This document shows, in pieces, positions 11,348-64,000 of a stretch of DNA of 64,000 nucleotides. A program made the position numbers and the translations under genes. Position 1 is the stretch's first letter. Every line of letters begins with the position of its first letter. Source of the DNA: an uncultured virus (IMG/VR IMGVR_UViG_2061766007_000696) (lineage: Duplodnaviria; Heunggongvirae; Uroviricota; Caudoviricetes); the IMG/VR virus record IMGVR_UViG_2061766007_000696; one strand, given 5' to 3'. Below the pieces are notes generated by a model. The model was not told the origin of the DNA, searched no databases, and was given only the letters and a program-made list of their open reading frames with translations.

Positions 11348-11406
11348 TGGGGCGTAGCTCAGATGGTCAGAGCTTTAGGTCGTGGGTTCAAATCCCACCG
11401 TTCCAA
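11348..11406 (+). ncRNA. tRNA-like RNA lacking the anticodon arm
   Basis: TGGGGCG/CGTTCCA acceptor, GCTC-agatggtca-GAGC D arm, only TTTAGGTC before GTGGG-TTCAAAT-CCCAC. Confidence 0.75.
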
Positions 11407-30547: not shown

Positions 30548-33500
30548 ATGCAAAATCTTCATCGTCATTCTTCTTATTCAAACATAATGATAACCGACAG
30601 TGCTGTTTCAAATGAGGATTATGCAAAACGTGCTGTTGAATTAGGACATAAAACCTTGTCATCTGTTGAACATGGATGGCAGGGTAATTATTTTCAAACT
30701 TATGAGTTAGCAAAAAAATATGGATTAAAACCCATTATTGGAACAGAGGCATATTGGGTTAAAGATAGAATTGCAGAAATAAAAACTGTAAACAAAAAAG
30801 GTGAGGGGGTCTTTAATAAAGATAGATCAAATCATCATATATTAATATTAGCTAAGTCTAACATGGGACGTGAGGCTATAAATGATATTCTTTCCGAGGC
30901 AAACATTAGTGGTTATTATTTTAGACCAAGGGTTGATTTAGAGTTGCTTTTTAGTTTACCACCTAATGATGTAATGATTACTTCTGCATGTATTGCCTTT
31001 AGTGGATATGAGGATATAGATGATATTATTCTTAAATTTCATGNNNNNNNNNNNNNNNNNNNNNNNNNNNNNNNNNNNNNNNNNNNNNNNNNNNNNNNNN
31101 NNNNNNNNNNNNNNNNNNNNNNNNNNNNNNNNNNNNNNNNNNNNNNNNNNNNNNNNNNNNNNNNNNNNNNNNNNNNNNNNNNNNNNNNNNNNNNNNNNNN
31201 NNNNNNNNNNNNNNNNNNNNNNNNNNNNNNNNNNNNNNNNNNNNNNNNNNNNNNNNNNNNNNNNNNNNNNNNNNNNNNNNNNNNNNNNNNNNNNNNNNNN
31301 NNNNNNNNNNNNNNNNNNNNNNNNNNNNNNNNNNNNNNNNNNNNNNNNNNNNNATAAAAGATGCTATGAATGTTACAGATCAGGCATTAGAATTTTGTGA
31401 TTACGATAATGTAAGAATTTTTACTAAAGATATAAAGTTACCTACTCTTTATCCTGGGGAAACAAAAGAACAAAAGGATAAAAGATATAGTAAACTTATT
31501 AGTAAAAAATTTACAGAATATATGAAAAATATTCCTTCTGAGGATTATGATAGATATTTTGAAGGTGTGAAAGCTGAAATACAAACATATAAAGATACGG
31601 GTATGTGTGATTATCCACTTCTTGATTATGCTATTGTAANNNNNNNNNNNNNNNNNNNNTTTCTTTACTAATACATTATGTGGATTTTCAAAAGTTGATA
31701 GATTTAAATCGGCTATCAAATTATATCCTGAACGATTTATTTCAACTACACGCATTCTTTCTACTAAGAGTCTTCCTGATATTGATTTAAATTGCGGTAC
31801 ACCAGAAATATTTGAGGAATCTCAAAAAAGAATACTTGGAGAAAATCATGTTGCTCCACTTATTGCTTTTGGTACTTTGAAAAAACGCTCTGCATTTAAA
31901 ATTTATGCAAAAGCAANNNNNNNNNNNNNNNNNNNNNNNNNNNNNNNNNAGATTGGCAAATATGAAGAAGCTGTTAAAAATGCTCCTGATGAATCAAAAG
32001 ATAGTATTGATATTCACGATTATATTGATGAAAAATATGAAGAATATCTCAAACAAAGTGAAGAATATTGGGGTGTAATTTCTGATAAGAAGAAAGCCCC
32101 AAGTGCTTATCTTCTTTATGATGGTGATATACGCCGAGAAATAGGTCTTATTAAATGTAAGAGTGAATCTTCGAAAAAAGAATATATTACTTGTGTAATA
32201 GATGGTGCTGTAGCTGAGAATTATAAGTTCTTAAAAAATGATATTCTTAAAGTTGATGTTGTATTACTTATTGATAAAGTTTTTAAACGTATAGGTATAG
32301 AACATTTTGATGTAAATAAATTATTAGAATTAATAAAAAATGATCAAAAAGTTTGGGATTTATATGCTAGTGGTTATACTATTGGATTAAATCAAGTCGA
32401 GCAAGAAGGTAGTAAAAGAAAATGCATGGCTTATAAACCTCATAATATATCTGAATTAAGTGCTTTTGTGGCTGCTATACNNNNNNNNNNNNNNNNNNNN
32501 NNNNNNNNNNNNNNNNNNNNNNNNNNNNNNNNNNNNNNNNNNAAGATTTTTCCTGGGGAATTCCTACACTTGATAATCTTATAAGAACAGAAGAACTACC
32601 AGTATCGTTTATGTTTTTTCAAGAACAGGTAATGTCTGTTTTAAATTATGCTGGTTTTCCTATGGATGAATGTTACGGAATAATTAAAGCAATTGCTAAG
32701 AAACATCCTGAAAAAGTTAAACCTTTAAAAGAAAAATTTATTGAAGGATTTAAAGAAAAACTTATTCAAAATGAAGGATTATCAGAAGAAGAAGCACAAA
32801 AAAATTCTAAAGATGTTTGGCAGATAGTAAACGATAATTGCGGATATTCCTTCAATTCAGCCCATGCTTTTTGTATGGCTCTTGATAGTTTATATCAAGC
32901 ATGGCAAAAAGCTAATTATCCTTATGAATTTTATGAGGTATTATTACAGCATTATTCTGATAAAGGTAATAAAAATAAAGTATCTATTCTTAAAGAAGAG
33001 ATGNNNNNNNNNNNNNNNNNNNNNNNCAGTTTAAATTCAGGGATGATAACAGACATTTTACAGCTAATAAAGAAAAACATTTTATATCACCATCATTAAG
33101 TTCTCTGAAAGGTATGGGAAATACAGTAGCAGAGGATTTATATAACTTGAGGAATAAAAAATATAATAGTTTTGTTGAACTTCTTGATGACTTAAAAACA
33201 ACTTCTTGTAAATCAAGTCAATTAAATATACTTGTTAAATTAGATTATTTTTCGGAATTCGGTGACATTAATTACCTTCTCAAAGCAATAAAATACTATG
33301 ATATTCTCCGCACTAAGAGGCAACTTAAACATGAGCAGCTTAAACTTCTCAATCTTCAGAGTAAAGATGTAGAACCTTATGCTGAAAAAGTTCTGGCTAA
33401 GATTATAAAATTAAAAGATGCCAAAGGTTTACTTGAATATGCTATTAATAACATAAAAGAACCTAAATGTACTACTCTTGAGAAAATGCGTTATCAGAAT

Positions 33501-33812
33501 GAACTTCTTGGATATGTGTCAATAACTGATCCTAATTTAGAAGATGATTGTTATTTTGTACAAAATATCAATGGTACTTATAGTCGTATGGTTTCTCTGT
33601 ATCAGATGAATTGTGGTAAGAGTTTTACTATTAAAATCCGCAAATCTCAGTTTGAGAAGAATCCTGTTAAGATTGGGCAAATTGCCCGAATTAAAGAGAT
33701 TATCAACGATAAAAAATGGCGAAAAGTCAAGGATGATGAGGATGGTGAGGAATATTGGGTGCGAATTGACGAAAGAGAAGATATTTTAACAAAATATGCT
33801 GTTATTAGTTGA
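30548..33812 (+). CDS. dnaE: DNA polymerase III alpha subunit (phage DnaE), fragmented by gaps
   Basis: PHP motifs HRHSSYS, EHG, GTEAY; PERF, SLPDIDL, KNDIL, YSFNSAHA. Confidence 0.9.
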
Positions 33813-48938: not shown

Positions 48939-49084
48939 TATAAATAACCCTACATAGTAGATTCAAAGAAAATTTAACTACAACAACTATAAATGCTGTG
49001 TAGGGTTTTATAAGGTGGAAAAAGTTTTGATCACATATTACATTTTTAGATTACTTGAAATAATTATATTGGGGTACGATAATT

Positions 49085-49281
49085 ATGAAACAAAATTTTT
49101 TAACAACGAAAGACGTTCAGNNNNNNNNNNNNNNNNNNNNNNNNNNNNNNNNNNNNNNGCAATAAAGCTAGTAAATCTGCCTGATTTTCCAAAAGTAAGA
49201 GTAGGAAGATTAATAAGAATCCCGGAAGATGATTTTTATAAATATATGGAATCATATAGGAATCTTTCTATCAATATATAG
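49085..49281 (+). CDS. xis: excisionase-like HTH protein
   Basis: FPKVRVGRLIRIP motif, convergent with the integrase. Confidence 0.7.
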
Positions 49282-49284
49282 AAG

Positions 49285-49320
49285 AAAGCCGACAAACTTT
49301 ATTGCTTGTCGGCTTTTTTT
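49285..49320. terminator. hairpin/terminator at the convergence of xis and int
   Basis: AAAGCCGACAA...TTGTCGGCTTTTTTT. Confidence 0.6.
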
Positions 49321-50436
49321 ATGGCATCTTTCAAGGTCTTAATATCAACACCAACATAAATATTAGCAGTTGTAGTAATATCATTATGACCTAAAAGCTC
49401 TGATATTGTTTTTAAAGGAACATTGAGCTGATATAGGATTGATCCATATCCATGCCTCAAACTGTGAGGGGTATAATCCTTGTTTGAAACATTTGAATTA
49501 TCCAACATCCTTTTTAAAGTTCTCTCGACAGTTCTTCTTGAATAAGGGTTGCTCTTATTTGTGAGAAAAACATAATCGTCCGAAGAATGATTAGGATTTT
49601 CCTGATCCATAATTTTTAAAATCTCACCAGCTCTTTTTCTATAAGGAATAATTCTGGATGAATCTTCAGTCTTTGTATCTTTGTCAATTATCTCATAATG
49701 AGAGATATTACCCTGATTATCTCGAATTTTTACCCTAGTTGTGGTTGAGATTACTCTAATTGTCTCATTCTCTAAATCAACATTTTCCCATTTTAGACCA
49801 CAAGCCTCAGCAAGTCTCAATCCAGAATACATGATAAAAACAAGCATATAAGCAGCTGTTCCATAAACAGGAGTATTCCGTGAGGTCTTTTTAAAAGCCT
49901 CATTATAAAGAATATCCATATCCTCATTTGAGGTGAAACTTATCTGTTTCTTTTTATTTACAACATTTGATTCTGTCGGAACTTTTACTTTTTTTATTTT
50001 AAGATTTGGGAATTGAGTCGGATCTTCATTGATGGCATTTCTTAAGATATTCCAGGTTTTTGTGATTGTTCCTCGCCTGTATGTCTGAGCTAGTTCTTTA
50101 AAATAATCATTGAGATTGTCTGAAATTATTGCTTGTACCTGTCTATTTGCTAACGGATGTTTGAAAAATCTTTGACTCAATGCATCCTCATAAGCATCAA
50201 ATGTCGTAGATTGAAGATTTATGCCGACTTCTTTGTACTTGACCTCGTATAACCAATGTTTGACATATTGACCAAAAGTCAATTTATTGTCAGATAGATT
50301 TATTTTCTTTTCTTGATTTTTGATTTTTTCTTGAACTTCGGCATTGGACTTTCCATAAACGTATTTTCCATCAGTTGTTCTATAATAATAATATTTTTTA
50401 CCATTAACAACTTTANNNNNNNNNNNNNNNTTTCAT
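49299..50436 (-). CDS. int: phage tyrosine integrase
   Basis: SGLRLAE, KT, HSLRH, LGH, Y; start extended to ATG at 50436 across a gap. Confidence 0.95.
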
Positions 50437-50486
50437 AAATATAATCACCTCTTGAAACTGATTATACTGGAAAGAAATTATTATGC

Positions 50487-50736
50487 AACCATGTCAAATA
50501 TTGACATAGTTTTTGAAAATAAAAAACCGAGAACTCTTCGTTCTCGGCTTATTTAATAGTCGGAGTGGCGGGNNNNNNNNNNNNNNNNNNNNNNNNNNNN
50601 NNNNNNNNNNNNNNNNNNNNNNNNNNNNNNNNNNNNNNNNNNNNNNNNNNNNNNNNNNATATGTTCTTGATGTAAATTAATCTAAATTTATCAAAGTTTA
50701 CCCTAATTTATCAAAACCATGTCAAATCATGTCAAA
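50487..50736. other. probable attP region
   Basis: CATGTCAAA repeats (50490, 50718, 50728; inverted TTGACAT at 50501) flank GTCGGAGTGGCGGG, which resembles a tRNA 3' end on the - strand. Confidence 0.6.
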
Positions 50737-50778
50737 CATTAAAATAAATCAAGAAGCGCATAATTACCGCTTTGCTAA

Positions 50779-50851
50779 CACGAGCGCAAGGATTCGAACC
50801 TTGAAATGGCAGATTTGGAGTCTACTGCTGTACCAATTGAGCCACGCTCGC
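50779..50851 (-). tRNA. tRNA-Trp(CCA)
   Basis: reverse complement GCGAGCG..GTAGA-ctccaaa-TCTGC..CAAGG-TTCGAAT-CCTTG-CGCTCGT. Confidence 0.9.
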
Positions 50852-50952
50852 TTAACGAAAACGCCTAGGAGCAAAGCCCCTAGACGAAATCTCAGCACTA
50901 TCCACACAAGGATGGTAGTGAAAGTAACTTCCCAACATAATTGTCGGGAATA

Positions 50953-51672
50953 TCATTTTAATTTCTTTCTCGTCAAGCTACCGCAAACACCATCGGCAGT
51001 AATCTTGGCAGAAGTCTGGAATTCTTTGAGACATCTTTCCGTTTCTGAACCAAAGTCCCCATCAATATCAAGTTTATAACCTGCTTCAACAAGTTCCCAC
51101 TGAAGCCATTTAACAGCCTCTCCAACCATATTTTTCTTAAGAGTAATATGAGGTTCTTTATAAGGATTTGTCCCTTTAGCAGATGAGATAGGAGCGAGAT
51201 TAACCTCGTAGTTATATTTAATCCAGGAAAACGTAAGACCACATGTCCAATTCATAGGATCAAATCTACTACGAATTGTTCCAAAGTCGATACCTTTAGC
51301 CTCATAAACAAAATATCCATCAGACTCATGAGAAAAGATACCAACATGACCTTTACGCCAAACTACCGTACCATTTGCAAAAACACGGTACTGACTAATA
51401 GGAAGTCTCGTATATGCCTGAGAATAAAGCTGAGAACTGCCTAAAACCTTCTTAGTATAAGAGGAGATAAGTCCAGAACAGTCAACACATATTTTTCCGA
51501 CCATTCCTTTGTTCCGAGCTTTCTGCATATATTGAGTTGTAACTATGTTAGGATAAGCTTTGTGCATTGACATCATGAAAGATTCATTTAGAATTTTTAG
51601 CTTGCTACCATAAAAATATGGAGTACCAAGCAAAGATTTTGCATGTTCAACTAAACCTTGTCCAGTAAGCAT
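50953..51672 (-). CDS. endolysin (NlpC/P60 catalytic domain plus peptidoglycan-binding domain)
   Basis: GTPYFYG, VDCSGL, GHVGI; VKWLQ..DGDFG..T..FQ..DGVCG. Confidence 0.9.
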   Translation of the reverse strand: MLTGQGLVEHAKSLLGTPYFYGSKLKILNESFMMSMHKAYPNIVTTQYMQKARNKGMVGKICVDCSGLISSYTKKVLGSSQLYSQAYTRLPISQYRVFANGTVVWRKGHVGIFSHESDGYFVYEAKGIDFGTIRSRFDPMNWTCGLTFSWIKYNYEVNLAPISSAKGTNPYKEPHITLKKNMVGEAVKWLQWELVEAGYKLDIDGDFGSETERCLKEFQTSAKITADGVCGSLTRKKLK

Positions 51673-52360
51673 GTTGTTTACCTCCTTTGAATAAAAAAAA
51701 GGAACAGCCTCAGCTGTTCTCAAAAAATAGTTTATATATAAATTTCTGTTTATTTTTCTCTAATAAATCCTTACTACAATTGAACAACTAGAGATTTTTC
51801 AATGCAATGCCGGGTGACATTCTTTGTCAATCTCTAGATATCAGCAAAAGCATTTNNNNNNNNNNNNNNNNNNNNNNNNNNNNNNNNNNNNNNNNNNNNN
51901 NNNNNNNNNNNNNNNNNNNNNNNNNNNNNNNNNNNNNNNNNNNNNNNNNNNNNNNNNNNNNNNNNNNNNNNNNNNNNNNNNNNNACCTTTCGTTTTCTGC
52001 TTTCAAATTATTTATTTCTTTCATTTGTTCTTCAAGTCTATTTTCTACTTCATAACAGATATATTGGTCATTTTCTTTTAGTAATTGACGAATCATTACA
52101 TCTGTTTCCATAATATACCTCATATCTTTATTTAGTGTACTAACTGTCTTGTTGACATGAATCAGTATTCGGTGGACTATCTTTAACATTTTCTAATTCT
52201 TTAGGTTGATTTAATATGATAATGTCTACGGCTATATTATTTGTGTATTTAATACTCAGCAAATAGATTTACCACTGTTTACTCAGCGTATTTTGCTTTT
52301 CTTCCGTATTTAATGCCTATGCTAAGACAACCACTAGTTTCATTAATGTCTAAAATATAA

Positions 52361-53170
52361 CTAACTCATGTAATTTCCAGTCTTAATACAAAGAATATAA
52401 CCAAACAATGTTCCACTTGATGCACTTGATGCAATATTAGATAAGAAGATATTATTATTCTTCATCATTCTAAAGGCAACATTAGAATTACCAGTGTCTA
52501 TTGTATGAAAACAAAAAAATTTATAACCCGATGGAATAGTAGCTATATTTGGATATTCAATAGTACCGTTAGCTACTAAATTATACGACTTTGAATATTG
52601 AACTAGTTTAAATAAGTTCGTTAAAGCGGAATTTAACTCAGTAACTGCTGTTGAAAGTGTAGTACTAGTAAAGTTACTACTATTAGTACTCCAAGAACCA
52701 GCAGAGCAAGCCGTTGTACATTTATAAAGTGTATTATTATAAATTACATAATTACCAACACTATAAGCTTTACTTGTACTATATTGATCTGTACTCTTCC
52801 AAATCATATCATCAGCTCTTGAGGCAACTGAAGAAGCAGTATTTGCTGTAGAAGCTGCCGAACTTGCTACTGAAGCAGCATCCGAAACATCATTATTTAA
52901 CTGACTAGTATATGCTCCTAATGTGGTTGCTGTAAAACAGTCCTGGTTAGTTGTCCATGAACCGGCTGAACATGCAGTAGTACATTTGTAGAGCTGATTA
53001 TTTTCGATAACAACATCACCTACCGCATAAGCCTTAGAAGATGAGTAGGCATCTGCCTCGTTATTGAGTGCAGAATTTGCCTTATCCTCTAATATATTTA
53101 GTTTAGCTGACGGAACTCCCGCAAACGGTATAAGTTCCCTGGTGTTTTTATCCAAAGTGTTAGAACTCAT
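52361..53170 (-). CDS. tail-fibre/receptor-binding-like protein with two carbohydrate-binding-like repeats
   Basis: MSSNT..PFAGVP; two copies of YSxSKAYxVG..LYKCTTACSAGSW; LNSALT junction then a distinct C-terminal domain. Confidence 0.7.
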   Translation of the reverse strand: MSSNTLDKNTRELIPFAGVPSAKLNILEDKANSALNNEADAYSSSKAYAVGDVVIENNQLYKCTTACSAGSWTTNQDCFTATTLGAYTSQLNNDVSDAASVASSAASTANTASSVASRADDMIWKSTDQYSTSKAYSVGNYVIYNNTLYKCTTACSAGSWSTNSSNFTSTTLSTAVTELNSALTNLFKLVQYSKSYNLVANGTIEYPNIATIPSGYKFFCFHTIDTGNSNVAFRMMKNNNIFLSNIASSASSGTLFGYILCIKTGNYMS

Positions 53171-53219
53171 GATAAAATCCTCCTTTATTATAATTCTATT
53201 GTTTAATATTGTCAAGTAA

Positions 53220-53263
53220 TGCGTGGTAGGGATTCGAACCCTACAGGTGTCCCTTATCACGCA
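53220..53263 (-). ncRNA. tRNA minihelix-like element (acceptor plus T arm only)
   Basis: reverse complement TGCGTG-13nt-GTAGGG-TTCGAAT-CCCTAC-CACGCA. Confidence 0.55.
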
Positions 53264-53426
53264 AAAAATGCCATAAAAGAGATGTTTTACGGCATTTTAT
53301 AAAAACTGGTTTATGAAATTTTAATATGTTATAATATCAGGGCGAGGATGCTGCCGACAACGGTAAAGCGGTTGCTTATTCCCCCTCGGAGTGCAGACTA
53401 AATCTGCTTGAAAAGGGGGTGGTTGT

Positions 53427-53510
53427 ATGACATTACAAGAGCTTTATTATTGCTTGATGATTATCAAAGTGATTATAGACATTGTTATTATCATCACAAC
53501 TGAAAAATGA
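53427..53510 (+). CDS. putative type I toxin, 27-aa hydrophobic peptide
   Basis: MTLQELYYCLMIIKVIIDIVIIITTEK with strong SD, inside long-range inverted repeats. Confidence 0.65.
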   Translation: MTLQELYYCLMIIKVIIDIVIIITTEK

Positions 53511-53609
53511 CCGCGGGCTAGGCAGTCATTCTTCTGAATAGATTATTTTCTTTTCACTAGTTTGCACTCCGAAGCAGCCGTTTTACTGGCAGCATCCTCG
53601 TTTAAAGAT

Positions 53610-53638
53610 ATTATAATATATTTTGTCTTTTTTATCAA
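53610..53638 (-). promoter_or_regulatory. antisense promoter for a putative antitoxin RNA
   Basis: TTGATA-17-TATAAT on the - strand, converging on the toxin mRNA. Confidence 0.65.
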
Positions 53639-54000
53639 TAATGTGGATTTCCGGAAATCTACATCAAATCACAGGATCAGGATTGTTTTCCCATCAAGGG
53701 TATTCTCAAGCTCGGNNNNNNNNNNNNNNNNNNNNNNNNNNNNNNNNNNNNNNNNNNNNNAGATGGTTTGTTTCATCAAAAAGGATCTGCCCATCTTTTA
53801 TCGCTTTTCCTGAGAGGGCAGAAGTAACGCCACGAATGAATTTAACAAGTGACATTAATATCACCATCCTTTCTATTAATCTTAAACCTATCTTTTCGAA
53901 CTTCTAAAATACGAAAAACCGCAAACATAAGATATGCCGCAAGTTTCATAGATTTAACGTATTCTTTTTTAAATTCCATTTATCCTTTTCCTCAATAAAA

Positions 54001-54026
54001 AAGAGAGGGTATAAAACCCTCTCTTT
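54001..54026 (-). terminator. rho-independent terminator
   Basis: AAGAGAGGGT-ataaa-ACCCTCTCTT with T-tract on the - strand, just after the 479-aa gene. Confidence 0.7.
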
Positions 54027-54040
54027 AATACATAATCAAA

Positions 54041-55480
54041 TTAAGATACTGTCTGCCATTCTAAAGCAGAGGCAATAGCATCGTCTGTATAAGCACGACC
54101 GCCATAAACTGTTATATCATCTTTATCATCTTGATTAGTACCTAAAACTGCGGCTGCACTTCCAGCTGCATCAAATGCTGTAGTATCCTCAAGAGCGGCA
54201 CTACCAAGTCCGTGTACTGGAACAGACGTTCCGTCAACATCTATAGCCCCATCAACTGAACCCTCTGTTACAGACTGAACAGCACTACCAGCTGTTCCAG
54301 CAATTTCATCCAGAGCATCCTGAACATTTGTGCTTGTAAGACCAGAAGTTGTATTAGTATAATCGAGGTCTTCAGCTGCGCCAGTTGTAGCAACCTTATC
54401 AAGAACAATATCAGTACCAGAACCAGCACCAATGATACCGTCTGTCTCAGAGATACCAGCCTTGATAGTTACAACACCACTTGTCTCAGAGGCAATTGCA
54501 ACATCATTTGATGTATCAAGAGCAGCAACAGCAGCAGCGGCAGCATCTTTAGCAATCTTAGCAACTGAACCAGTTGTAGAATCAGAGCCATCTAATCTCT
54601 GAAGTGCCTGTTTAACTGTCTCGCCATCACCAGCACCGCTAGATGTCTCAGCTTTGTATTCAATCTTGGATGCATCAATCTTTACGATAGTTGCACTGAA
54701 TACATGATCTGTAAGTGTGAGCTGAACCTCAGTAGCATTAAGCTGAACACCATAGACATCAACAAAAGTCTGAAGGTTTACATACAGAGGATCTGTAACG
54801 TTTTGCATCTCCATCTTGAGATATTTACCAGCATCAGCTGATGTAGGTGTTGTTTCACCTTTAATAAGAGCGGTAACATCAGTCACACCATCATACAGTT
54901 TATCAGAACTGAATGTGATATCAACAATACTAGCCGCCTGAAGCACCTTATCCTTCGGAATATTGATAGTTCCAACAAGAGTAGCAGGATCTGTCAGTGC
55001 CTCAGGTGAATTAGCACCCTGATAAAGTCTGAATACTTTAGCATAATCAGACTGTCCTGAGGAAGCATCTGTCAGCCAAACAGTTTTGGAAGCTACACCA
55101 CCAGCAGAAGCTGTTGCAAGTTCCTGAAGCGCACCTTCTACAGTTTCAGCCGCGATAAGACCACCAGCATCAGCGATTGATACATCAGCAGCTGCACCTG
55201 TAGATGCAATTTTTGCAAGAGAGATATCCTTAGTTGTATCTGTACCAACAGCAATAGAACCATCTGTCTCTTTGATACCCTTAATTGTTACGATACCCTC
55301 AGAAATTGATGCAAGAGCAAACTCAGCAACGTCAAGGTCATTTCTGTCAAGTTTATTTGTTCCCTGATAGAAGCTCTCTCCACCACCTGTTTCTGAAACT
55401 CTGTAGAGAGTACCATTGTCAACAGACTGAAGTGCGTCATATTGTGCACGAGTTAATAATTTAAATAAAACAGAACTCAT
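54041..55480 (-). CDS. virion structural/decoration-like protein with internal repeat
   Basis: Ala/Thr/Asp-rich; duplicated IAS..G.VTIK.I.ETDG.I..G..DI.L.K.A.TGAA block. Confidence 0.6.
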   Translation of the reverse strand: MSSVLFKLLTRAQYDALQSVDNGTLYRVSETGGGESFYQGTNKLDRNDLDVAEFALASISEGIVTIKGIKETDGSIAVGTDTTKDISLAKIASTGAAADVSIADAGGLIAAETVEGALQELATASAGGVASKTVWLTDASSGQSDYAKVFRLYQGANSPEALTDPATLVGTINIPKDKVLQAASIVDITFSSDKLYDGVTDVTALIKGETTPTSADAGKYLKMEMQNVTDPLYVNLQTFVDVYGVQLNATEVQLTLTDHVFSATIVKIDASKIEYKAETSSGAGDGETVKQALQRLDGSDSTTGSVAKIAKDAAAAAVAALDTSNDVAIASETSGVVTIKAGISETDGIIGAGSGTDIVLDKVATTGAAEDLDYTNTTSGLTSTNVQDALDEIAGTAGSAVQSVTEGSVDGAIDVDGTSVPVHGLGSAALEDTTAFDAAGSAAAVLGTNQDDKDDITVYGGRAYTDDAIASALEWQTVS

Positions 55481-55538
55481 AATTGTTCTCCTTTCTTAAT
55501 AAAAAAATTAATTTGTTCTCCATTCAATTGTGTTTTTG

Positions 55539-55937
55539 CTATAATCCNNNNNNNNNNNNNNNNNNNNNNNNNNNNNNNAAATTATCTGAAGAAAAATATA
55601 TAACTCCAGTTCTTCCAGGACGAGGAAATGTATCTAATGTTCCATATACTAATTGAGAATCAGGATTTGATGTGATCTGAATCCATTCATAAGAAGTTGT
55701 TAATCTCCAAAGAATATTGGTTTCAAAGATAAAATAAAATCCTGGAACAAGATTAGGCAACATAATTCCTCTCATATCATCAGTTGCAAGACACATTATC
55801 TGATCATAAAAAACACGACCATTTTCCCCATCAAGGGCAATTTGTCGTGTATCCTCACAAAATATTAAATTTCCAACCTCAACTGCAATCTCACTCAGCT
55901 TGTCAGAGGTTGTGCAGATATATTTTACATTTGCCAT
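55539..55937 (-). CDS. tail-associated hypothetical protein
   Basis: ggaggg SD; position in late module. Confidence 0.55.
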   Translation of the reverse strand: MANVKYICTTSDKLSEIAVEVGNLIFCEDTRQIALDGENGRVFYDQIMCLATDDMRGIMLPNLVPGFYFIFETNILWRLTTSYEWIQITSNPDSQLVYGTLDTFPRPGRTGVIYFSSDNXXXXXXXXXXXGL

Positions 55938-55946
55938 AATCCCTCC

Positions 55947-56744
55947 TTAAATAAAATGAATCGCAAGTTGTTGGTCAGTATAATCATGAGCATTCTGGAT
56001 AGCCCCCTCAGTGCTCTGATTTACGTATTCAGTTATAGTGACTGGTTCCTGCCCCGGAACATCAACATGAGTTAGAGCATCAACTTCATCTTTTGTATAA
56101 GTATTACTTTTATCGGCTTTACCATTTAAAGCCGTATCCATTTCATTCTTTGAATAAACTTCATCAGCGTCTGCTTTATTGGACAGTACAGTATCAATGT
56201 AATCACGTCCGTAAACATCATCTGAATCAGCTTTTTGTTCCAACAAAGTATCTGTCTGAACTTTTGTATAAACATCATTAGCGTTCGCTTTATTGGACAG
56301 TTCTGCCTGTACCGCATTCACGGTAACACCGAGATTAGTAAGAGTTTCACTTATACTTGATATATTTTCCTCAGCAATCTCTAGGCGGTTATCAATACCC
56401 TGAACCTGAGTTTTTAAAGTATCAAGTTCAATCTTTACCTCATAAAATGTTGGTTTATACTGAATACCGTCAAATGTATAAACAACATCATTGACTATAT
56501 ATAAGACCTCAGTATCACCTTCATTTACATCAGGTAATTGTCCGACTCTTTGGACACTTATTTTATTATCGCCAACAATGGTATGTATCTGTTTTTCGGG
56601 ATCGACATAAACAAGATATCCAGTGTCGATGATATAACACCAACATATCCTGTCTATATCCTTTAAAGCACCGTCTATAAGTGCCTGCTCAAGAACGGAG
56701 ACAGTTGAGGCTCTTGCAAAAATTGGTAAAATTAATTGTGCCAT
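55947..56744 (-). CDS. tail-fibre-like protein with KAD..VY repeats
   Basis: four L..KA(N/D)..(D/E/N)(V/T)Y.K/R..D repeats. Confidence 0.65.
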   Translation of the reverse strand: MAQLILPIFARASTVSVLEQALIDGALKDIDRICWCYIIDTGYLVYVDPEKQIHTIVGDNKISVQRVGQLPDVNEGDTEVLYIVNDVVYTFDGIQYKPTFYEVKIELDTLKTQVQGIDNRLEIAEENISSISETLTNLGVTVNAVQAELSNKANANDVYTKVQTDTLLEQKADSDDVYGRDYIDTVLSNKADADEVYSKNEMDTALNGKADKSNTYTKDEVDALTHVDVPGQEPVTITEYVNQSTEGAIQNAHDYTDQQLAIHFI

Positions 56745-56764
56745 GGCATATTTTTATATCCCCG

Positions 56765-57508
56765 TTATGAGCCAAGTAAAGCGTCAAGATTTAATTCTGG
56801 TATTCTTGTTGTTGAAAATAAACTTGTATTCAGAGTATCGACATTATCAACACCATTAGCATCATCAAGGTCTACCTGGGCATCGGTAGGATTGCTGTCG
56901 GTATCTATATCTGCCTCAATGAGAATTTCCACACCCTCACCCATAGGTTCATTATCAGCATTCTTAAGTTGTAATTTGTCATCAGTAAGCATAAGATCGA
57001 CAGCTTGAGCTTTACTGTATTCACTTGAAATAGCATTGAGTTTTGCAATCTCATTATCAATTTCTAAGAAACGGTTATCAATCGCACCAAGAGAAGCATC
57101 AGGCATAAATCTGTAATAATCTTCCCAAGTGAGAATTGTTAGTTCTAGCTCACTACTATGCATTACATATGAAATCTCAGTCTCAACATCATACTTTGTA
57201 AGTGTTATTTCTATTTTGATAGTTCCAGCCATATGCGTGAATTTTGAATCAACTGGCAAAACATATCTGTACCAGTTATCTTTATAAAGACCGTCATCCG
57301 TATCACCACTCAGAGTAAGAGTTTCCATGTGACTCACATTAGCAGCATCAATATAGAGCAGGGTAGCAGTGAAACCTTCCATTTCCATATCATTTATAGT
57401 CAACGGAATAAGAACCTCTAAAATATCTACACGACTTTCACCTTGTCTTATTTTGGTATTTTTTGTCAGAACTAATTGTTTATTTTCTTTAAAAAGAATT
57501 GTGCTCAT
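56765..57508 (-). CDS. baseplate/BppU-like protein
   Basis: IRQGESRVD.., KFTHMAGTIKIEI, position in tail module. Confidence 0.55.
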   Translation of the reverse strand: MSTILFKENKQLVLTKNTKIRQGESRVDILEVLIPLTINDMEMEGFTATLLYIDAANVSHMETLTLSGDTDDGLYKDNWYRYVLPVDSKFTHMAGTIKIEITLTKYDVETEISYVMHSSELELTILTWEDYYRFMPDASLGAIDNRFLEIDNEIAKLNAISSEYSKAQAVDLMLTDDKLQLKNADNEPMGEGVEILIEADIDTDSNPTDAQVDLDDANGVDNVDTLNTSLFSTTRIPELNLDALLGS

Positions 57509-57731
57509 AAACAGGTTTACNNNNNNNNNNNNNNNNNNNNNNNNNNNNNNNNNNNNNNNNNNNNNNNNNNNNNNNNNNNNNNNNNNNNNNNNNNNNNNNN
57601 NNNNNNNNNNNNNNNNNNNNNNNNNNNNNNNNNNNNNNNNNNNNNNNNNNNNNNNNNNNNNNNNNNNNNNNNNNNNNNNNNNNNNNNNNNNNNNNNNNNN
57701 NNNNNNNNNNNNNNNNNNNNNNNNNNNNNNN

Positions 57732-58459
57732 NATTTAGTCTCTGTCTTTTTTGCGTTGACTACATTTGTTTCAGAGGGCGATAATGTTTGTTCATTTTTT
57801 ATGTTTTTAATATTGTATTTATAAATGGTATTATATTTGATCTGTCCATCAGTATTTCTTCTGAAAAAAGTCGTATATAGATATCCATTAACATAAGANN
57901 NNNNNNNNNNNNNNNNNNNNNNNNNNNNNNNNNNNNNNNNNNNNNNNNNNNNNCAAGAACAGTTCCTTTTAGAACAGCAATATCATAAAAATATTTACCA
58001 CCACTTTTCTTTGTTCCTACTACAAACTTATATCTTTTATCCTGATCCATACCTATATACGTTATACTATTGAATTCATTAACAACACCGTTTTTCTTAT
58101 AAAAGATTTCCTTTTTGATTTCCCCTTTAAGATTAACCTGTAAAAGCTGAGGATAATTTGGAGTATTCATGGTAGATATGAAGAGATATTTTTCCGCATA
58201 CGTTATTCCGTTAGCATGACGAGCAAGTTTAGCCACTTTACCATTTTTGGTCACATTATANNNNNNNNNNNNNNNNNNNNNNNNNNNNNNNNNACATTGG
58301 ATACAGAATATTATCTTTCGTTGCGCCACATGACTTTAAAACATATAAAGTATCTTTATAATTTGTCATGCTGTTAACCGCAGTGAGCTTAAAACCACCG
58401 ACAACAGGATTTGGAATTTTTTTGATCAATGAATGATTCATATTAAAATTTGTTGCCAT
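57732..58459 (-). CDS. hypothetical beta-rich protein (gap-fragmented)
   Basis: ORFs 58256-58459 and 57799-58329; HANGITY motif. Confidence 0.45.
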
Positions 58460-58821
58460 AAACTCACCTCCTTTTTCAAAACAAAAGAGCAGTACAATGA
58501 CTGCTCTTAAAAAATATAACTGTATAAAAATACATTCTGTATTCAGTTGTCAATTTATAAATTTCTGTTTATTTTTTATACGATAAATCCTTATTTAAAT
58601 GAGTTACTATAATTTNNNNNNNNNNNNNNNNNNNNNTGCATGTGTAAAATTACAGCCACACAAGAAACCTAAAAAAGCACATATAAATCCTAAAAGTACA
58701 CTCATCTTAATACCTACTTTCTATGTAACTAAAATTTCTGCTTTTACTGAGTGCCTAAAGCTATGCAATAGACACTCATATTTTGTCTGAAAAGCTATGC
58801 AATTCAGATTTCTAATTTAAA

Positions 58822-59422
58822 TTACGAGTAGACTTTTCTATAAATAACATTTATCCCATCTGTATTATTAAGTGTATAAGTTGAATTTGTAGTATTAACT
58901 AACCCAAGAGTTATTTTATTATTCGTTGCATCAATAGAANNNNNNNNNNNNGCTCATATACTCTACTGCAAATATTTCATAACCGTTTGGTATTGTAATA
59001 GATGCCCTCTCAACCGTTTTAACTGTTCCTGGAGTAAGGTTAGCCCAACCAGATAAAGTAAACCATTGTTTTTTAACTGGTGGCTGCGTTAAAGCGGAAT
59101 TTAGCGTATTAATTCCACCTGTTACAGTACCATTTCCAATAGAAGATATGTCGGTCGTTCCCAACATTTTATACAAATATCTTACATTTTTAAACATTTG
59201 AGACATCTTAGCAAATATGCTAGAATGTGTTTCATTAGTTGCTAATTGTGTTACTGATGTCCAGGAATCTGCATTAGCATCAGTAGTGTCACTAGAAGTA
59301 AATGTAGTAACATTATCTTTTGAATCGCCATCTTTGCTCATTTTTGATGTTAATAGATCAATGGGAACTCCGGCAAATGGAGAGAGTTTCCCAGTATTCG
59401 AGTCATAAATATTTGAACTCAT
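58822..59422 (-). CDS. tail-fibre-like protein (continues past the gap to ..YRKVYS)
   Basis: MSSNI..PFAGVP N-terminus shared with the 52361 gene; LGTTDISSIGNGTVTG, LNSALT. Confidence 0.7.
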
Positions 59423-59553
59423 TATGACCTCCTTTCTATATAATTAGGCATATACCTAATGTTTAATTTTAATCAAGTTTTTTATTTTTATTAAAAAGAG
59501 CGTTCGTTACCGAACGCCCTACATTATACATACACATGTGCAGTATTCTAACT

Positions 59554-60606
59554 TTAATCACAAATCATTCTGTATTGTTGAGTAACTTTTGGAGTTCTGA
59601 CTTCGGCATAATCAAGCGTAGTATTATACTGTTCATGCCCCAATATTTTCATCAATACTTCAACATCCATTCCATGATTTATAGCTTCTGTAGCCATAGT
59701 TATTCTGAATTTATGTGGATTTTTCTTTGTGACAATATTTGCTTTATTACCTATTCTTTTCAGAATGTTTTCAACACCACTATTTCCCATAGCTTCATAA
59801 TCCTTAGTTACTGAATCTCGCTTTAATCTGACAAATAATGGTCTGGATATCATATCTTCCTTTGAACGGTTTTCATTATTAAGTCTCCAATCGAGGTATC
59901 TTAATAAATAAAAGCCTGCCCTTTCTGAAAATGGTACAATACGATCTTTCTTTCCTTTACCTTGACGTATTTTTACTTCAAGATGCTGAAAGTCAACATC
60001 ATACCATCTAAGATTACATAATTCTCCAACTCTTACAGCGGTAGCAAGAAGAAATTCTACAATAGCTATATCCCTGGGACTGTCACGACAAGCAAGTTTT
60101 ATCATTTCTATTTCAGCAGTAGTAAATTTTTCTTTGATAATTTTTTCTCTTTTAATAGTGTCAATCATTTCCATGGGATTTTCATCAATAAATTTTTTCT
60201 TTTTGAGATATTTAAAGAAAGCACATNNNNNNNNNNNNNNNNNNNGTATTGGTAGCCCATTGTTTTTCATAAGAACATGTAGCAAGATAAGCTTCAATGT
60301 CTACTGAATCAATATCAACAAAATTTTTGCCAACAGATGTTCTCATATGCATAACAGCTCTTACATATTGTGTAATAGTTTTCTCAGATAACTTTCTAAC
60401 TCTTTCAGAAGCAATAAACATCTTTAGAGTATTAGCATCATTACTGTCTGATAATTCAATGAGATCATAACATTTCTTGGAAATATCAACATCTCTTAAA
60501 TGAATATANNNNNNNNNNNNNNNNNNNNNAGTTGTTCATCATCCAGAGTAGTCAGCATACTATTTAAAACACTAGTTACAAACATATCAACATTTTGCTC
60601 TGACAT
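59554..60606 (-). CDS. second tyrosine recombinase (XerD-like) embedded in the tail-fibre module
   Basis: TAVRVGE, GKGKKDR, HKFR, LGH, TTLDY; N-terminal LSEKTITQY domain. Confidence 0.9.
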
Positions 60607-60844
60607 AATACACATCCTTTCGAATTGATATTTAATATTCCATTTATATTATATCACTGGATATTTCTTTCAGAGCAAAGTTAATAATTTTTTAATTAAT
60701 TTTAGACAAAAACAATAAAGGTAGAACAAAAGAACAATACTTTTATTTAATTAAATATTCAGTTTAAGTTCATTTATAAATTCTAATTTAAATGAGTANN
60801 NNNNNNNNTTTACAGTCGATTTTTATTATGTAAAATCCACTTAA

Positions 60845-62500
60845 TTATGGCACATAAGTAGTGAGTGAAATGCTTTCAGATGATGTATATTCTACAAATA
60901 ATCGTACACTTGAACCTAGTCTTATCAAAGAGCTTGTTGCTGATATGTACTTATTTGTAAAATCACCACTCAGCATAGTTAATACTGGAGTCTCATTACT
61001 TACTTTTGTTAATGTAGCTACTTTAGCATCATTTGTTATAAGCATCATTGCAAAAGAAGCATCAGTGCTATATGAAATATTTACACCTGTCTTTGAGTTA
61101 TCAGTAATAACATTCATTACATGACAGTCAGACCAAATTCTGTCACTTAAAGCGGAATTTAGCGCAGCATCGTTGTTCAGTAAAGTGCCTATAGCATTGT
61201 TCATAGAAGTATTGGAAGAAATTGTTTCCGTTACCGTTGTTCCGGATCCTGTCTTAGATGTGGAAGTGTACAAATTACTTCCGTTATATGTATGATCTGT
61301 ATCATAATCGTAACCTGAATATGTTCCCTGATTATTATATATTCTAATAAGTTTTCCGTTGTTAGGATTAACAGCAACACCGTAAACCTGGTTAGAAGCA
61401 GTAGGGGCTACTTTCCAATAAGTATGATATTCAACATTACCTATTGTAACATCTGTAANNNNNNNNNNNNNNNNNNNNNNNNNNNTTGTTTCATGATTGA
61501 GTAATATACCTGAAACAGTTCCATCAGCAAGTGACGAAATATCATGTCCCCCAATTAAATATGGATCATCATCAATCAGATTAACAACCAAATATTTTGC
61601 CTTTTCGGAAACAGATAATTGTTCCCATTGAGCTGTTGTTCCAGTAAAAGTTGTTCCGTCAACATTATCATCCGTAATATCAATAACATCATAAATATCT
61701 TGTTCAGCAGTTGATAATGAATTCCATTCAGCCTGAGTTCCAACAAAAGTCTTAGGAGTACCAATTCCATTAGCACTACATGATTTCCATACCCAAGATG
61801 TTCCGTCGTAAACATAAGTATTATAAAATCCGGCTGTTCCAAAAATAGTGTTATTAACACCGATAGGAATAGAACTATTTTTAACAATAATATTTTTTGC
61901 GCCTGTACTATTAACATTTAATGTTACAGGTGAATTAGCAGTAGNNNNNNNNNNNNNNNNNNNNNNNNNNNNNNNNNNNNNNNNNNNNNNNNNNNNNNNN
62001 NNNNNNNNNNNNNNNNNNNNNNNNNNNNNNNNNNNNNNNNNNNNNNNNNNNNNTGATTGGGTACTTAATGCAGTACCGTTCTTATTCTTAAGTATAATAT
62101 TTCCATTTGAAATTTCAAGTGAATTTGCGTAATTAGATTTAATATTGTTACCTGACTCATCAGCTAAAGCTTTTGCAGCTGTACCAGCGACATATTCTTT
62201 ATAACCAGCTGCCTCATCTAATTTTGTATCATCAACAACAACATACATAACACCCGTATCTAACTGTCTGACTGTATCACCATTCTGAACAGTAGCAGTA
62301 GTAAGAGCGTATCTTGCAGTCTGGTCTGCTACATCCACCATACGTTCCAAAGCACCAGACGGAAGGTTTGACAGACTAAGCACATCAGACAATTGTGCCT
62401 TTTTAGTAACGCCATTTGCGTCATTAACAATCACATCAACATTTGTAGGCACAGTTGTAAGTTGATCTAATTGTTTTACCGTTTTTAATGTAATTGCCAT
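60845..62500 (-). CDS. tail fibre protein
   Basis: GTQAEW repeats, TLNVNSTGAKNI, LNSALS junction before the C-terminal domain. Confidence 0.75.
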   Translation of the reverse strand: MAITLKTVKQLDQLTTVPTNVDVIVNDANGVTKKAQLSDVLSLSNLPSGALERMVDVADQTARYALTTATVQNGDTVRQLDTGVMYVVVDDTKLDEAAGYKEYVAGTAAKALADESGNNIKSNYANSLEISNGNIILKNKNGTALSTQSXXXXXXXXXXXXXXXXXXXXXXXXXXXXXXXXXXXXXTANSPVTLNVNSTGAKNIIVKNSSIPIGVNNTIFGTAGFYNTYVYDGTSWVWKSCSANGIGTPKTFVGTQAEWNSLSTAEQDIYDVIDITDDNVDGTTFTGTTAQWEQLSVSEKAKYLVVNLIDDDPYLIGGHDISSLADGTVSGILLNHETXXXXXXXXXXTDVTIGNVEYHTYWKVAPTASNQVYGVAVNPNNGKLIRIYNNQGTYSGYDYDTDHTYNGSNLYTSTSKTGSGTTVTETISSNTSMNNAIGTLLNNDAALNSALSDRIWSDCHVMNVITDNSKTGVNISYSTDASFAMMLITNDAKVATLTKVSNETPVLTMLSGDFTNKYISATSSLIRLGSSVRLFVEYTSSESISLTTYVP

Positions 62501-62514
62501 CGCAATCTCCTTTC

Positions 62515-63714
62515 TTAAAGCAATAAGAGAGTTCCACCATCTGCATCCTCAAGAACTTTTAAGAGGTCTGCAAGATTTACAACCGTCCCATCCTGAAATG
62601 TATATGTAAGATGCGAAGCATCATGAGAACTCCAATCGGCAGCTTGTTCTGCCCAATATTTTGCATTATTAGTCGCACTAGGTTCTGTAGCCCCAGTTGT
62701 CCATTCAGCCCATTTTCTTGCAAGCTCTACTGAATCCTCAGCATCAGATGCACTCTGAGTACAGCTACTCTCAAGTGTCATAACTCTACCTTCGATTGCA
62801 GCCGCTGCATCCTCACTTGCTTTTGCAGCGTCCTCAGAATCCTTAGCATTGTCCTCCGAATTTTTAGCATTTGTTTCTGATACCTTAGCATTATCCTCCG
62901 AGGTTTTAGCATTGTCCTCAGATGTCTTTGCGTTATCTTCAGAACTCTTTGCTGCAAGTTCTGAGGCTTTAGATGCTGTTTCTGAATCTTTTGCTGCATC
63001 CTCTGATGCTTTGGCATTTGTTTCTGAAGTTGCTGCATTATCAGCTGATACACTTGCCGCATTTGCTTTTGCACCTGCGGTGTTTGCATAATTTGAAGCA
63101 TTAGTTGCAGAAGTAGCAGAAGCAGTTGCAGAATTTGCAGATTCCGTAGCAGAGGCAGTTGATTCAAGAGCTTTATTAGTAGCTGTCTGAGCAGAATTAC
63201 TAGCAGAAGTAGCAGAACTGTTTGCGGCGTTTGCTGCTGTATTACATTGCTGAACATATGTAAGTAAATCATCATATGTCATTTCTGATTTACGTATAGC
63301 GTCAACTAATAATTGGAATTCATTTGATGAGATAACCTCATTAGCATCAAATGATTCAGTAACTATGACACAAAATGGGAAACTCTTTAGCTGAGTGCTA
63401 CTAGATATATCTACAATACCAATCTGTAAATTTACTCTGCCAGGTACAGCGGTCATTTGATAAGTAATCTCAAATGTGATTTTATTATTTGATATAGTAC
63501 CCTCATTAACAATCTGAGTTCCGTCAGGTTTTTCACCCACTACAATTGCTTTAGTACCTGAGGGTATTGTATAGGGTAAGCCATTTGATACGAGAGTAAC
63601 AGATACATATCTGGCACCATTTCCATCACCTTGTACAGCAGGAATAAACATAAAGTTATTATTAGAGGATAACTCTATAACATATTCATGTGTAATAGGA
63701 GTTATATTTCCCAT
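62515..63714 (-). CDS. BppU-like baseplate protein with Ala/Ser heptad repeats
   Basis: AVQGD..R, KPDGT; SEDNAKT-type tandem repeats; NNAKYW. Confidence 0.75.
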   Translation of the reverse strand: MGNITPITHEYVIELSSNNNFMFIPAVQGDGNGARYVSVTLVSNGLPYTIPSGTKAIVVGEKPDGTQIVNEGTISNNKITFEITYQMTAVPGRVNLQIGIVDISSSTQLKSFPFCVIVTESFDANEVISSNEFQLLVDAIRKSEMTYDDLLTYVQQCNTAANAANSSATSASNSAQTATNKALESTASATESANSATASATSATNASNYANTAGAKANAASVSADNAATSETNAKASEDAAKDSETASKASELAAKSSEDNAKTSEDNAKTSEDNAKVSETNAKNSEDNAKDSEDAAKASEDAAAAIEGRVMTLESSCTQSASDAEDSVELARKWAEWTTGATEPSATNNAKYWAEQAADWSSHDASHLTYTFQDGTVVNLADLLKVLEDADGGTLLLL

Positions 63715-63744
63715 ATTTCCTCCTTTCCGCAATTAAACAGACAT

Positions 63745-63936
63745 TTAATCGCATTTTTCTTCTTCTTCAGGTTGCTCCATTTGTTCCCTGGTTGCCTCCT
63801 TCTGAAGTTGTTGCGTATAAAGAGATCCAACATCTCTTGTGATATCTTTTAATATAAAAAAGACTACCCCAACGTCCAATCCGCTTGACTGGATATCATT
63901 GAGAATAGTCTGCTTGAATTTTTCATATTTAAGCAT
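63745..63936 (-). CDS. small tail-module protein
   Basis: 63-aa ORF with aagga SD. Confidence 0.5.
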   Translation of the reverse strand: MLKYEKFKQTILNDIQSSGLDVGVVFFILKDITRDVGSLYTQQLQKEATREQMEQPEEEEKCD

Positions 63937-64000
63937 TCTTTATCCTTTCAATCTCATTTTCTAATTCATCTATTCGTTTATATAATTTTTGAATCATGTG

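Follow-up and report, generated by a model that had tools for sequence, protein, structure and literature searches.

A stretch of 64,000 nucleotides from an uncultured virus (IMG/VR record IMGVR_UViG_2061766007_000696; Caudoviricetes), referred to here as the window, carries three tail-fibre genes that share an identical 15-bp site. The site lies in frame at the joint between the shaft and the tip of each fibre, and the gene of a second tyrosine recombinase, rec2, is located between two of the copies. In the interpretation favoured here, which is given about an even chance of being correct, the site is a working joint for the exchange of fibre tips and is served by rec2. The evidence comes from the conservation of the site itself, from the fibre proteins in which it lies, from related phages in which the segment between two such sites is found in both orientations, and from the relatives of the recombinase.

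The repeated site

An earlier note on this DNA, made from the letters alone, had reported three copies of a 15-mer on one strand. An exact scan of the 64-kb window bears this out: TTAAAGCGGAATTTA occurs at 52621-52635, 59089-59103 and 61147-61161, always on the + strand. The lengths shared with the flanks included, 17 bp for sites 1 and 2 and 18 bp for sites 2 and 3, also agree with that note. When up to two mismatches are allowed, 4 matches are found against 0.23 expected, and 0 of 100 shuffled sequences reach 4. A one-mismatch copy at 22651 was rejected as a site, as it lies in an unrelated gene on the + strand and in a different frame context.

Each copy is read in frame as L-N-S-A-L, in genes on the - strand. 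The identity extends to synonymous positions, as the earlier note had remarked. The serine codon TCC makes up 5.3% of serine codons in the window (usage over 6,632 codons), and the chance of meeting identical codons in three independent LNSAL motifs is about 7e-5. The motif is preceded by the codon ACG, GCG or GAG; codons of the form NCG are rare here, GCG accounting for 4.7% of alanine codons. These observations support a constraint on the 15-mer at the level of DNA, and not on the protein motif alone.

The inverted arms described in the earlier note hold in part. Arms do surround a 6-bp spacer, but full 5+5 inverted arms are found in site 1 only. A better description is given by 7-bp arms, CG-YTAAA / TTTA-RCG, both of which are present in site 2 and one each in sites 1 and 3. 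The pattern CG-YTAAA-N6-TTTA has 4 matches, all at these sites, against 0.06 expected in 64 kb. Two 22-nt elements on the + strand, listed in the table below, resemble the site. The one at 60776 has inverted orientation relative to it and the same outer arms, with 3 mismatches, all in the spacer. These degenerate inverted look-alikes, one behind tip 3 and one behind tip 2, may be what is left of former partner sites.

Fibre shafts and tips

The three fibre genes are complete, and each has a good ribosome-binding site and an ATG start codon. As the earlier note had stated, the motif stands where the proteins switch to unrelated C-termini: the tips that follow it, of 86, 93 and 100 aa, have no likeness to one another, and fibres 1 and 2 have only their first ~20 residues in common. 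The true length of fibre 2 is hidden by a masked run at 58940-58951.

The joint separates a conserved from a hypervariable part throughout the relatives. Fibre 1 has 128 protein relatives. Over 861 pairs drawn from 42 of these, identity averages 0.51 in the last 40 aa ahead of the motif and 0.076 in the first 40 aa behind it. Tips resemble each other in 8 of 1,176 pairs, 3 of which are the same protein found twice. Among the fibre relatives, the motif occurs as LNSAL, LNSSL, LNSDL, LNSNL or LNTSL. For the end of fibre 3, 18 of 33 matches stop no more than 8 residues past the motif. The proteins P0001, P0257 and P0258 combine the same shaft with different tips, so that the reassortment of C-terminal domains at this point, which the earlier note had predicted, is seen as different tips behind near-identical shafts. 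Two of these proteins, P0257 and P0258, consist of an N-terminal module of the fibre 2 type and the last ~50 shaft residues of fibre 3, followed by two different tips past LNSAL. Shaft sub-modules, and not tips alone, thus appear to be reshuffled.

An AlphaFold model of fibre 2, of modest quality (predicted local distance difference test score 64), contains a long helix at residues 66-87, a second helix at 100-111 that ends in LNSAL, and an all-beta domain at 116-201. A Foldseek search of this model against the PDB returned nothing at E <= 0.001; the top-ranking structure, a C-terminal portion of a phage depolymerase, reached E 0.22. Consequently, the term receptor-binding is based on the position and diversity of the tips and not on their fold.

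Inverted pairs and inversion isomers in related phages

An exact scan of IMG/VR for the 15-mer gives at least 119 stretches, most of them chance matches in short frames. Among the stretches listed, there are only two contigs with two copies; in both, the copies are inverted and about 630 bp apart. When an 18-base pattern is used and the partner is read, three IMG/VR contigs show an inverted-pair plan. A full fibre gene has its LNSAL site facing a convergent silent tip of 65-108 codons. The silent tip opens at its own LNSAL site, with no shaft or start before it, and is followed by genes for a holin and an endolysin. Only ~17-20 bp are common to the expressed and the silent copy. A fourth contig, L150, from a metagenome, carries an inverted pair of a one-base spacer variant, with TCA at both sites. 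The scan of related phages for both orientations that the earlier note had proposed therefore finds the inverted arrangement in three contigs and, as a spacer variant, in the fourth. A tblastn search with the window fibres and rec2 against the inverted-pair contigs gave no match.

The third base of the serine codon is informative in these comparisons. The three IMG/VR inverted pairs have TCC on both sides. At the sites of fibre 1 orthologues, which were found by protein search and for which the DNA was then fetched, the codon is TCA in L129, L148 and both L150 sites, and TCT in L157. Consequently, this base is free to vary between phages. Fibre 1 of the window agrees with the paralogues of its own genome (TCC) and not with its orthologues (TCA), although the numbers are small. 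A base that is matched within pairs and differs between phages is the pattern that partner sites would be expected to show.

A sister family extends these observations. The shaft module of fibre 2 is found in 140 proteins and in 195 IMG/VR stretches, 80 of which were analysed; it is also present in Roseburia phage Jekyll, with 50% identity across 53% of the query. The joint was located in 68 of the 80 loci, as LNSGL in 51, LNSSL in 9 and LNDGL in 8, with 12 loci giving no match. The sites have the arms of the window site and other spacers, and the spacers match within each pair. An inverted partner (at most 1 mismatch, 630-950 nt downstream) accompanies the joint in 9 of the 68 loci, and a direct partner in none of the 68.

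Three natural pairs of contigs from this family (L171/L186, L215/L241 and L242/L174) are inversion isomers. Their flanks are collinear at 90-98% identity, and the segment of ~975 nt between the sites is reverse-complemented at 94-99% identity. The second base of the silent-side site differs from that of the expressed-side site and stays in place in both isomers, which confines the exchange to the last 13 bp. A crossover within 13 bp is too short for ordinary homologous recombination. Together with the inverted pairs and their matched wobble base, the isomers bear out the proposal of the earlier note that the site is a recombination joint at the DNA level.

Several side observations concern these relatives. 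In the three isomer pairs, which belong to phages of ~60 kb, the invertible segment (94-99%) is more alike than the adjoining shaft (~90%); the two-tip cassette may spread between diverged phages. The invertible segment of L171 is adjoined by a repressor and an antirepressor. A further contig, L161 (PXZU01000595.1), has 69-bp perfect inverted repeats at 1310-1378/2545-2613 and at 3730-3798/4842-4910, ~1.2 kb apart within each pair. They lie near a distant relative of fibre 1 and may represent another type of invertible fibre locus with long repeats.

The inverting phages G001 (94% complete) and G005-G007 (92-100% complete) encode one tyrosine recombinase each. These enzymes are ordinary integrases of four unrelated types, and the distance of their genes from the sites ranges from 1.75 kb (in G001) to over 20 kb. 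A resolvase-type serine recombinase (PF00239) is absent from the relatives' records, in 4 of 4 and in 3 of 3 cases. Either different integrases all serve for inversion in these phages, or a host enzyme acts in trans. For a similar locus in bifidophages, a host enzyme acting in trans has been proposed (PMC6109161).

The second tyrosine recombinase

The gene between sites 2 and 3 encodes a tyrosine recombinase that is distinct from the phage integrase, with 24% identity, in agreement with the earlier note. The protein contains a Phage_integrase domain (6.7e-34) and a SAM-like N-terminal core-binding domain (Phage_int_SAM_4), has no arm-binding domain, and keeps the catalytic residues R-K-HxxR-H-Y. 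The window contains 77 runs of masked letters (N), 6,086 bases in total, and comparison with contigs reveals errors in their length: +5 nt behind 60245, +11 behind 53715, +2 behind 55546 and -9 at 60800. Since masks change length, frame breaks that fall at them are artefacts, two in rec2 and one in fibre 2. The breaks in rec2 fall only within masks (60227-60245 and 60509-60529), and the 5 letters behind 60245 are supplied by contigs of three runs; the gene is therefore probably intact.

Nine close relatives of rec2 (47-81% identity) are all metagenomic. In the rec2-family protein P0121, likeness to XerA, XerC and XerD begins at about residue 63. Two functional assignments were tried and rejected. 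As a dimer resolvase, P0121 falls below the curated cut-offs for XerA (173 bits against 220), XerC (151 against 335) and XerD (146 against 330). As an integron integrase, it scores 81 bits, and the window's own part of the protein 63 bits, against a cut-off of 265.

The three best relatives among GenBank phages (31-34% identity) are all found in type I restriction-modification loci. In two of the three loci, a 14-bp site of the form TAAA-N6-TTTA occurs in frame where hsdS pieces join, in four copies per locus (2 on the + and 2 on the - strand). When its flank is included, this site agrees with sites 2 and 3 at 13 of 17 positions, the four that differ being in the centre. Such repeats are missing from three weaker relatives (28-38% identity), and there is no repeated site of the TAAA-N6-TTTA form in L248-L251. 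Consequently, the likeness of the sites is founded on two of the six rec2 relatives examined. In a tree, the rec2 family (support 91/99) falls in a clade (82/91) with the hsdS-linked recombinases, apart from Xer-like proteins and integrases. By this likeness, rec2 may be tied to in-frame domain shuffling at sites of the TAAA-N6-TTTA form.

Rearrangement in assembled contigs

Four sequencing runs were compared with the window over 49,000-64,000, all of them as assembled contigs, and stretches of runs X4 and X6 without coverage were excluded. A contig of run X6, which belongs to another study, is 97% identical to the fibre 1 shaft from the ATG down to 52626, inside site 1. Beyond this point the contig has 39 unlike letters, in which the frame ends after nine codons, and it continues with a match to the DNA just past the fibre 2 stop (58810-58742). 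In a second X6 contig, 1,102 bp with fibre 2 are missing, rec2 is kept, and the end of rec2 is joined to the next gene. Variant contigs from the source sample diverge from the window at 52435, 60169, 60694, 60861 and 62447. Two of these positions, 60694 and 60169, imply that rec2 itself is mosaic. The region as a whole is strongly mosaic, with one breakpoint in a site and several outside the sites. Short joints in run X2 (49362 to 61663 and 52220 to 62994, with sides of 26-27 letters) and a link of 24 letters in run X6 (60295 to 58742) were set aside as too short to trust.

Proposed mechanism

In the favoured interpretation, the 15-mer would be the core of a crossover site, ~18-20 bp long, at which DNA is exchanged by conservative site-specific recombination. 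The site would have the form CG-YTAAA, a 6-bp spacer (here TTCCGC) and TTTA. The fixed arms code for L-N and for the final L, and the spacer for the two variable residues; the L-N-x-x-L motif consequently looks like an imprint of the site. Placed in frame at the end of the neck helix, where the conserved shaft meets a hypervariable all-beta tip, the site marks the point at which tips are traded across a large group of gut and rumen phages.

The orientation of the sites determines what recombination could achieve. Since all are direct, as the earlier note had seen, no flip is possible, and the outcomes are deletion or insertion, or exchange between molecules. The layout would thus not be a phase switch, as three tips would be made at once on three shafts. 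The sites would serve as portable in-frame joints, at which tips are traded between DNA molecules such as those of co-infecting relatives or resident prophages. An alternative route would be the excision and reinsertion of segments between sites. The combination found in the window, in which three direct sites share one spacer, all lie in expressed genes and are accompanied by a dedicated recombinase, was seen in no relative. The likeliest enzyme would be rec2, which resembles the Rin recombinase described below and is placed between two sites, and exchange would still be occurring in this phage.

A broader proposal would unite these systems. One clade of recombinases without an arm-binding domain would recognise TAAA-N6-TTTA sites and thereby imprint L-N-x-x-L on both HsdS and fibre tips; in this phage, tips would move as in-frame cassettes, by excision and insertion and between genomes, in an integron-like manner and not by flipping. 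This extension is speculative and is judged unlikely.

Weighing the explanations

A number of findings weigh against a working joint served by rec2. The inverting relatives carry no relative of rec2, and consequently the site does not need this enzyme. No relative of rec2 was found in IMG/VR, and the GTDB genomes contain just one, with 27% identity and of little informative value, in a metagenome-assembled genome of the Oscillospiraceae; the tree does not resolve the branching order within the recombinase clade. The window has no inverted copy of the site at up to two mismatches. The 4-bp arms are rich in A and T, and the need to code for L-N...L accounts for part of their sequence. The window's own tips, T1, T2 and T3, occur on no other shaft among 288 retrieved proteins, and in this respect the reassortment expected in the earlier note was not observed. 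Contigs of the source sample bridge sites 1 and 2 in the parental order of the window, and no contig bridging site 3 is among those listed. The earlier note had suggested looking for chimeric junctions or circles at the 15-mer, and the contigs of the four runs contain no site-to-site junction, neither the joint of 61147 to 59103 nor a circle junction; since contigs drop rare variants, this absence is weak evidence. Breakpoints of the mosaic lie away from the sites at 58450/59553, 60295, 60694 and 60169.

Several of these findings would also be expected if the sites were footprints only, left when an ancestor or donor acquired each tip by recombination at the joint, possibly with a host recombinase acting in trans, and were no longer recombining in this phage. 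In that case rec2 would have another role, either in integrating a small mobile module with which fibre 2 arrived or in resolving genome multimers. Inversion without a rec2-like gene in the relatives, the lack of site-to-site joints and the mosaic rec2 of the source-sample variants all fit this account. So do the end points of the 1,102 bp missing from the X6 relative, which fall at gene borders and not at sites, and the direct orientation, which gives no reversible switch. However, the three sites remain identical over 15 bp despite fully diverged flanks, and their TCC is unlike the TCA or TCT of the orthologues, which suggests ongoing selection or recent exchange within the genome. Moreover, rec2 stands between two sites and is co-oriented with the fibres. 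Of the three nearest relatives for which the context is visible, all are encoded in type I restriction-modification loci, and two are accompanied by invertible hsdS pieces with sites of the same form. Past acquisition alone is a real possibility that nevertheless falls short of being probable. A purely protein-level account, in which LNSAL is an end-of-helix motif, its DNA identity is due to chance, codon bias or gene conversion, and tips are exchanged by homologous recombination in the shaft, is very improbable. The variation of the motif among relatives, its position at a helix end in the fibre 2 model and a shaft conserved enough before the motif for homologous exchange on one side are compatible with it. 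They are outweighed by silent tips that have no shaft and share so short a stretch with the expressed gene, by the 13-bp crossover, by the matching of the wobble base within pairs and not between phages, and by the retention of rare codons. In addition, the varying residues are those coded by the spacer and the fixed ones those coded by the arms.

A more specific scheme starts from the same sites and supposes a programmed reaction in cis. Recombination of site 3 with site 2 would free a circle of 2,058 bp holding tip 3, rec2 and the shaft of fibre 2, in which shaft 2 would run into tip 3 as a single open frame; the circle would reinsert at any site and permute shafts and tips like an in-frame integron. 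The geometry set out for this event in the earlier note, including the in-frame hybrids, is arithmetically correct. All three sites are in one frame, and every recombination product would consequently be in frame as well. The present gene order would be the product of a circle insertion into a gene made of shaft 3 and tip 2, and the most symmetric of the sites is site 2, beside rec2. On the other side stand the absence of the 61147-to-59103 joint and of a circle junction from the contigs, and the X6 relative, which lacks fibre 2 and keeps rec2 in place of the predicted empty site. The integron integrase scores of 63-81 bits against 265, and the want of direct partners in the 68 sister-family loci, also argue against it. 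A programmed circle is regarded as improbable. The tip-exchange joint served by rec2 is retained as the best explanation of the window.

Comparison with known systems

The closest known system is the Rin shufflon, and the window carries a variant of this Rin-type fibre shufflon. In prophages of Bifidobacterium breve and Bifidobacterium longum, the published description (Mavrich et al. 2018, PMC6109161) reports silent tip cassettes without a start, inverted behind one constant gene, 11-bp rix sites, and inversion seen in reads. In both systems, the fibre genes have beside them the gene of a XerD-like tyrosine recombinase that lacks an arm-binding domain and is not the phage integrase, a comparison of the recombinases made by description only. 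Both also have a short asymmetric in-frame site at the constant/variable joint and unrelated variable C-termini (~95-100 aa in Rin). Unlike in Rin, the sites of the window all have direct orientation and belong to complete genes that have starts of their own, and there are no inverted silent cassettes. As to rearranged forms joined at the sites, the contigs compared here show no site-to-site joint and one homology break inside site 1, with isomers found in the sister family only. The Rin shufflon is also said to occur in Eggerthella prophages (PMC8778435).

A second inverted locus, in the tRNA-Met bifidophages, has no recombinase of its own according to the same source (PMC6109161). It resembles the relatives (L121, L123, L124, L150, L171 and others) in having a fibre gene with an inverted silent tip and a short repeat, and no invertase nearby. 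This likeness concerns the relatives and not the window, and the site and proteins are unrelated. The hsdS shufflons of MT835621.1 and MT838471.1 contain the nearest relatives of rec2 with visible context (34% identity) and an in-frame TAAA-N6-TTTA site that codes for x-N-D-N-L at a domain joint. In contrast to rec2, whose neighbours are fibre genes with no hsd genes nearby, those systems invert the target-recognition domains of HsdS.

The invertases Gin, Cin and Min of Mu, P1 and p15B are serine enzymes that act by inversion only and exchange the C-terminal portion of a tail fibre at a short intragenic site, as described in PMC6109161 and PMC9881135. The window shares with them a short site inside a fibre gene at the variable C-terminal part; the enzyme here is of the tyrosine type, and no serine recombinase was found among the 52 open reading frames of the window scanned with PHROGs. 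Neither an all-direct layout of fibre sites nor this site was found described in the literature searched, which was covered in part and in main texts only. Integron cassettes have direct sites, a tyrosine recombinase and circles that reinsert, and they are not joined in frame. Their likeness is a functional resemblance and applies to the circle scheme only.

Genomic setting

The window is AT-rich (~30% G+C) and encodes phage functions that include methyltransferases, HNH endonucleases, pieces of a DNA polymerase, NrdD, an integrase, an endolysin and tail fibres. It is near-complete in runs labelled bovine gut metagenome, and no near-identical DNA was found among GenBank phages. Along the coding strand, a 405-aa tail-fibre protein is followed by fibre 3, rec2 and fibre 2. 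Five genes and ~780 bp with little coding then lead to fibre 1, a small gene, the endolysin, tRNA-Trp and the integrase. The coordinates of the main features are collected in the table.

Table. Sites, fibre genes and recombinase genes of the window
Feature	Position	Strand	Description
Integrase	49299..50282	-	the phage's other tyrosine recombinase; beside tRNA-Trp and endolysin; 24% identical to rec2
Fibre 1 (269 aa)	52361..53170	-	two CBM_5_12 repeats (2e-12), LNSAL, 86-aa tip (52364-52620)
Site 1 (S1)	52619..52636	-	15-mer with CG flank; LNSAL of fibre 1 shaft/tip joint
22-nt element, second copy	58583..58604	+	91% identical; ~220 nt past fibre 2 stop
Fibre 2 (204 aa)	58824..59422	-	P0136 (100% identity); two-helix shaft module, LNSAL at end of second helix, 93-aa tip predicted all-beta
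Site 2 (S2)	59087..59106	-	most symmetric copy, a 7-bp arm flanking spacer TTCCGC on each side; LNSAL of fibre 2
rec2	59554..60606	-	~350 aa, XerC/D-like; between sites 2 and 3, co-oriented with fibres
22-nt element, family D10	60776..60797	+	54 nt past fibre 3 stop
Fibre 3 (551 aa)	60845..62500	-	LNSAL 105 aa before end; 100-aa tip (60848-61146)
Site 3 (S3)	61147..61164	-	LNSAL of fibre 3

Several other features of the window were observed. Between a 479-aa gene and fibre 1, an element of ~300 nt with long nested stems occupies 53300-53620 on the - strand, together with 53220-53255. Its fold has an energy of -139.6 kcal/mol (z -10.4), and 0 of 100 shuffles fold as well. A terminator hairpin comes after it, with a stretch that looks like the 3' half of a tRNA, and a search of 53100-54100 against Rfam gave chance-level rows only. 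The element could be a structured RNA or a palindromic mobile element. At 53680-53855 (- strand), a short open frame starts like the N-terminus of a fibre protein and ends past a mask; it may be what remains of a fibre gene that was lost or displaced. A small open frame at ~58620-58704 (- strand), between fibre 2 and the next gene, has a hydrophobic start and a lipobox-like cysteine and may encode a small lipoprotein such as a superinfection-exclusion factor. It falls in the 1,102 bp missing from the X6 relative. The gene at 57799-58459 has an apparent frameshift at a mask and is probably intact, like rec2 and fibre 2. On the + strand, four successive open frames at 30548-33812 match one DNA polymerase family (phrog_405) and lie among many HNH endonuclease genes; this polymerase gene may be split by masks, homing elements or inteins. 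Finally, a partial tRNA match at 11348-11406 stands beside a 363-aa gene (11626-12717), for which the best PHROG family is annotated as transposase (phrog_506, 1.4e-135).

Significance

The host range of gut and rumen phages is set largely by the tips of their fibres. The free movement of tips from shaft to shaft and from phage to phage would be explained by a short, portable in-frame joint common to many otherwise unrelated fibres, which would also provide a defined handle for the swapping of tips in laboratory phages. The likeness in site form to the hsdS shufflons suggests that one enzyme lineage serves two specificity switches. The all-direct layout beside a dedicated recombinase is unlike known fibre switches. 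Should it prove active, tyrosine-recombinase shufflons would be extended from flipping to the exchange of cassettes; even an inactive layout would leave the window as a clear case of recombination footprints where two domains meet.

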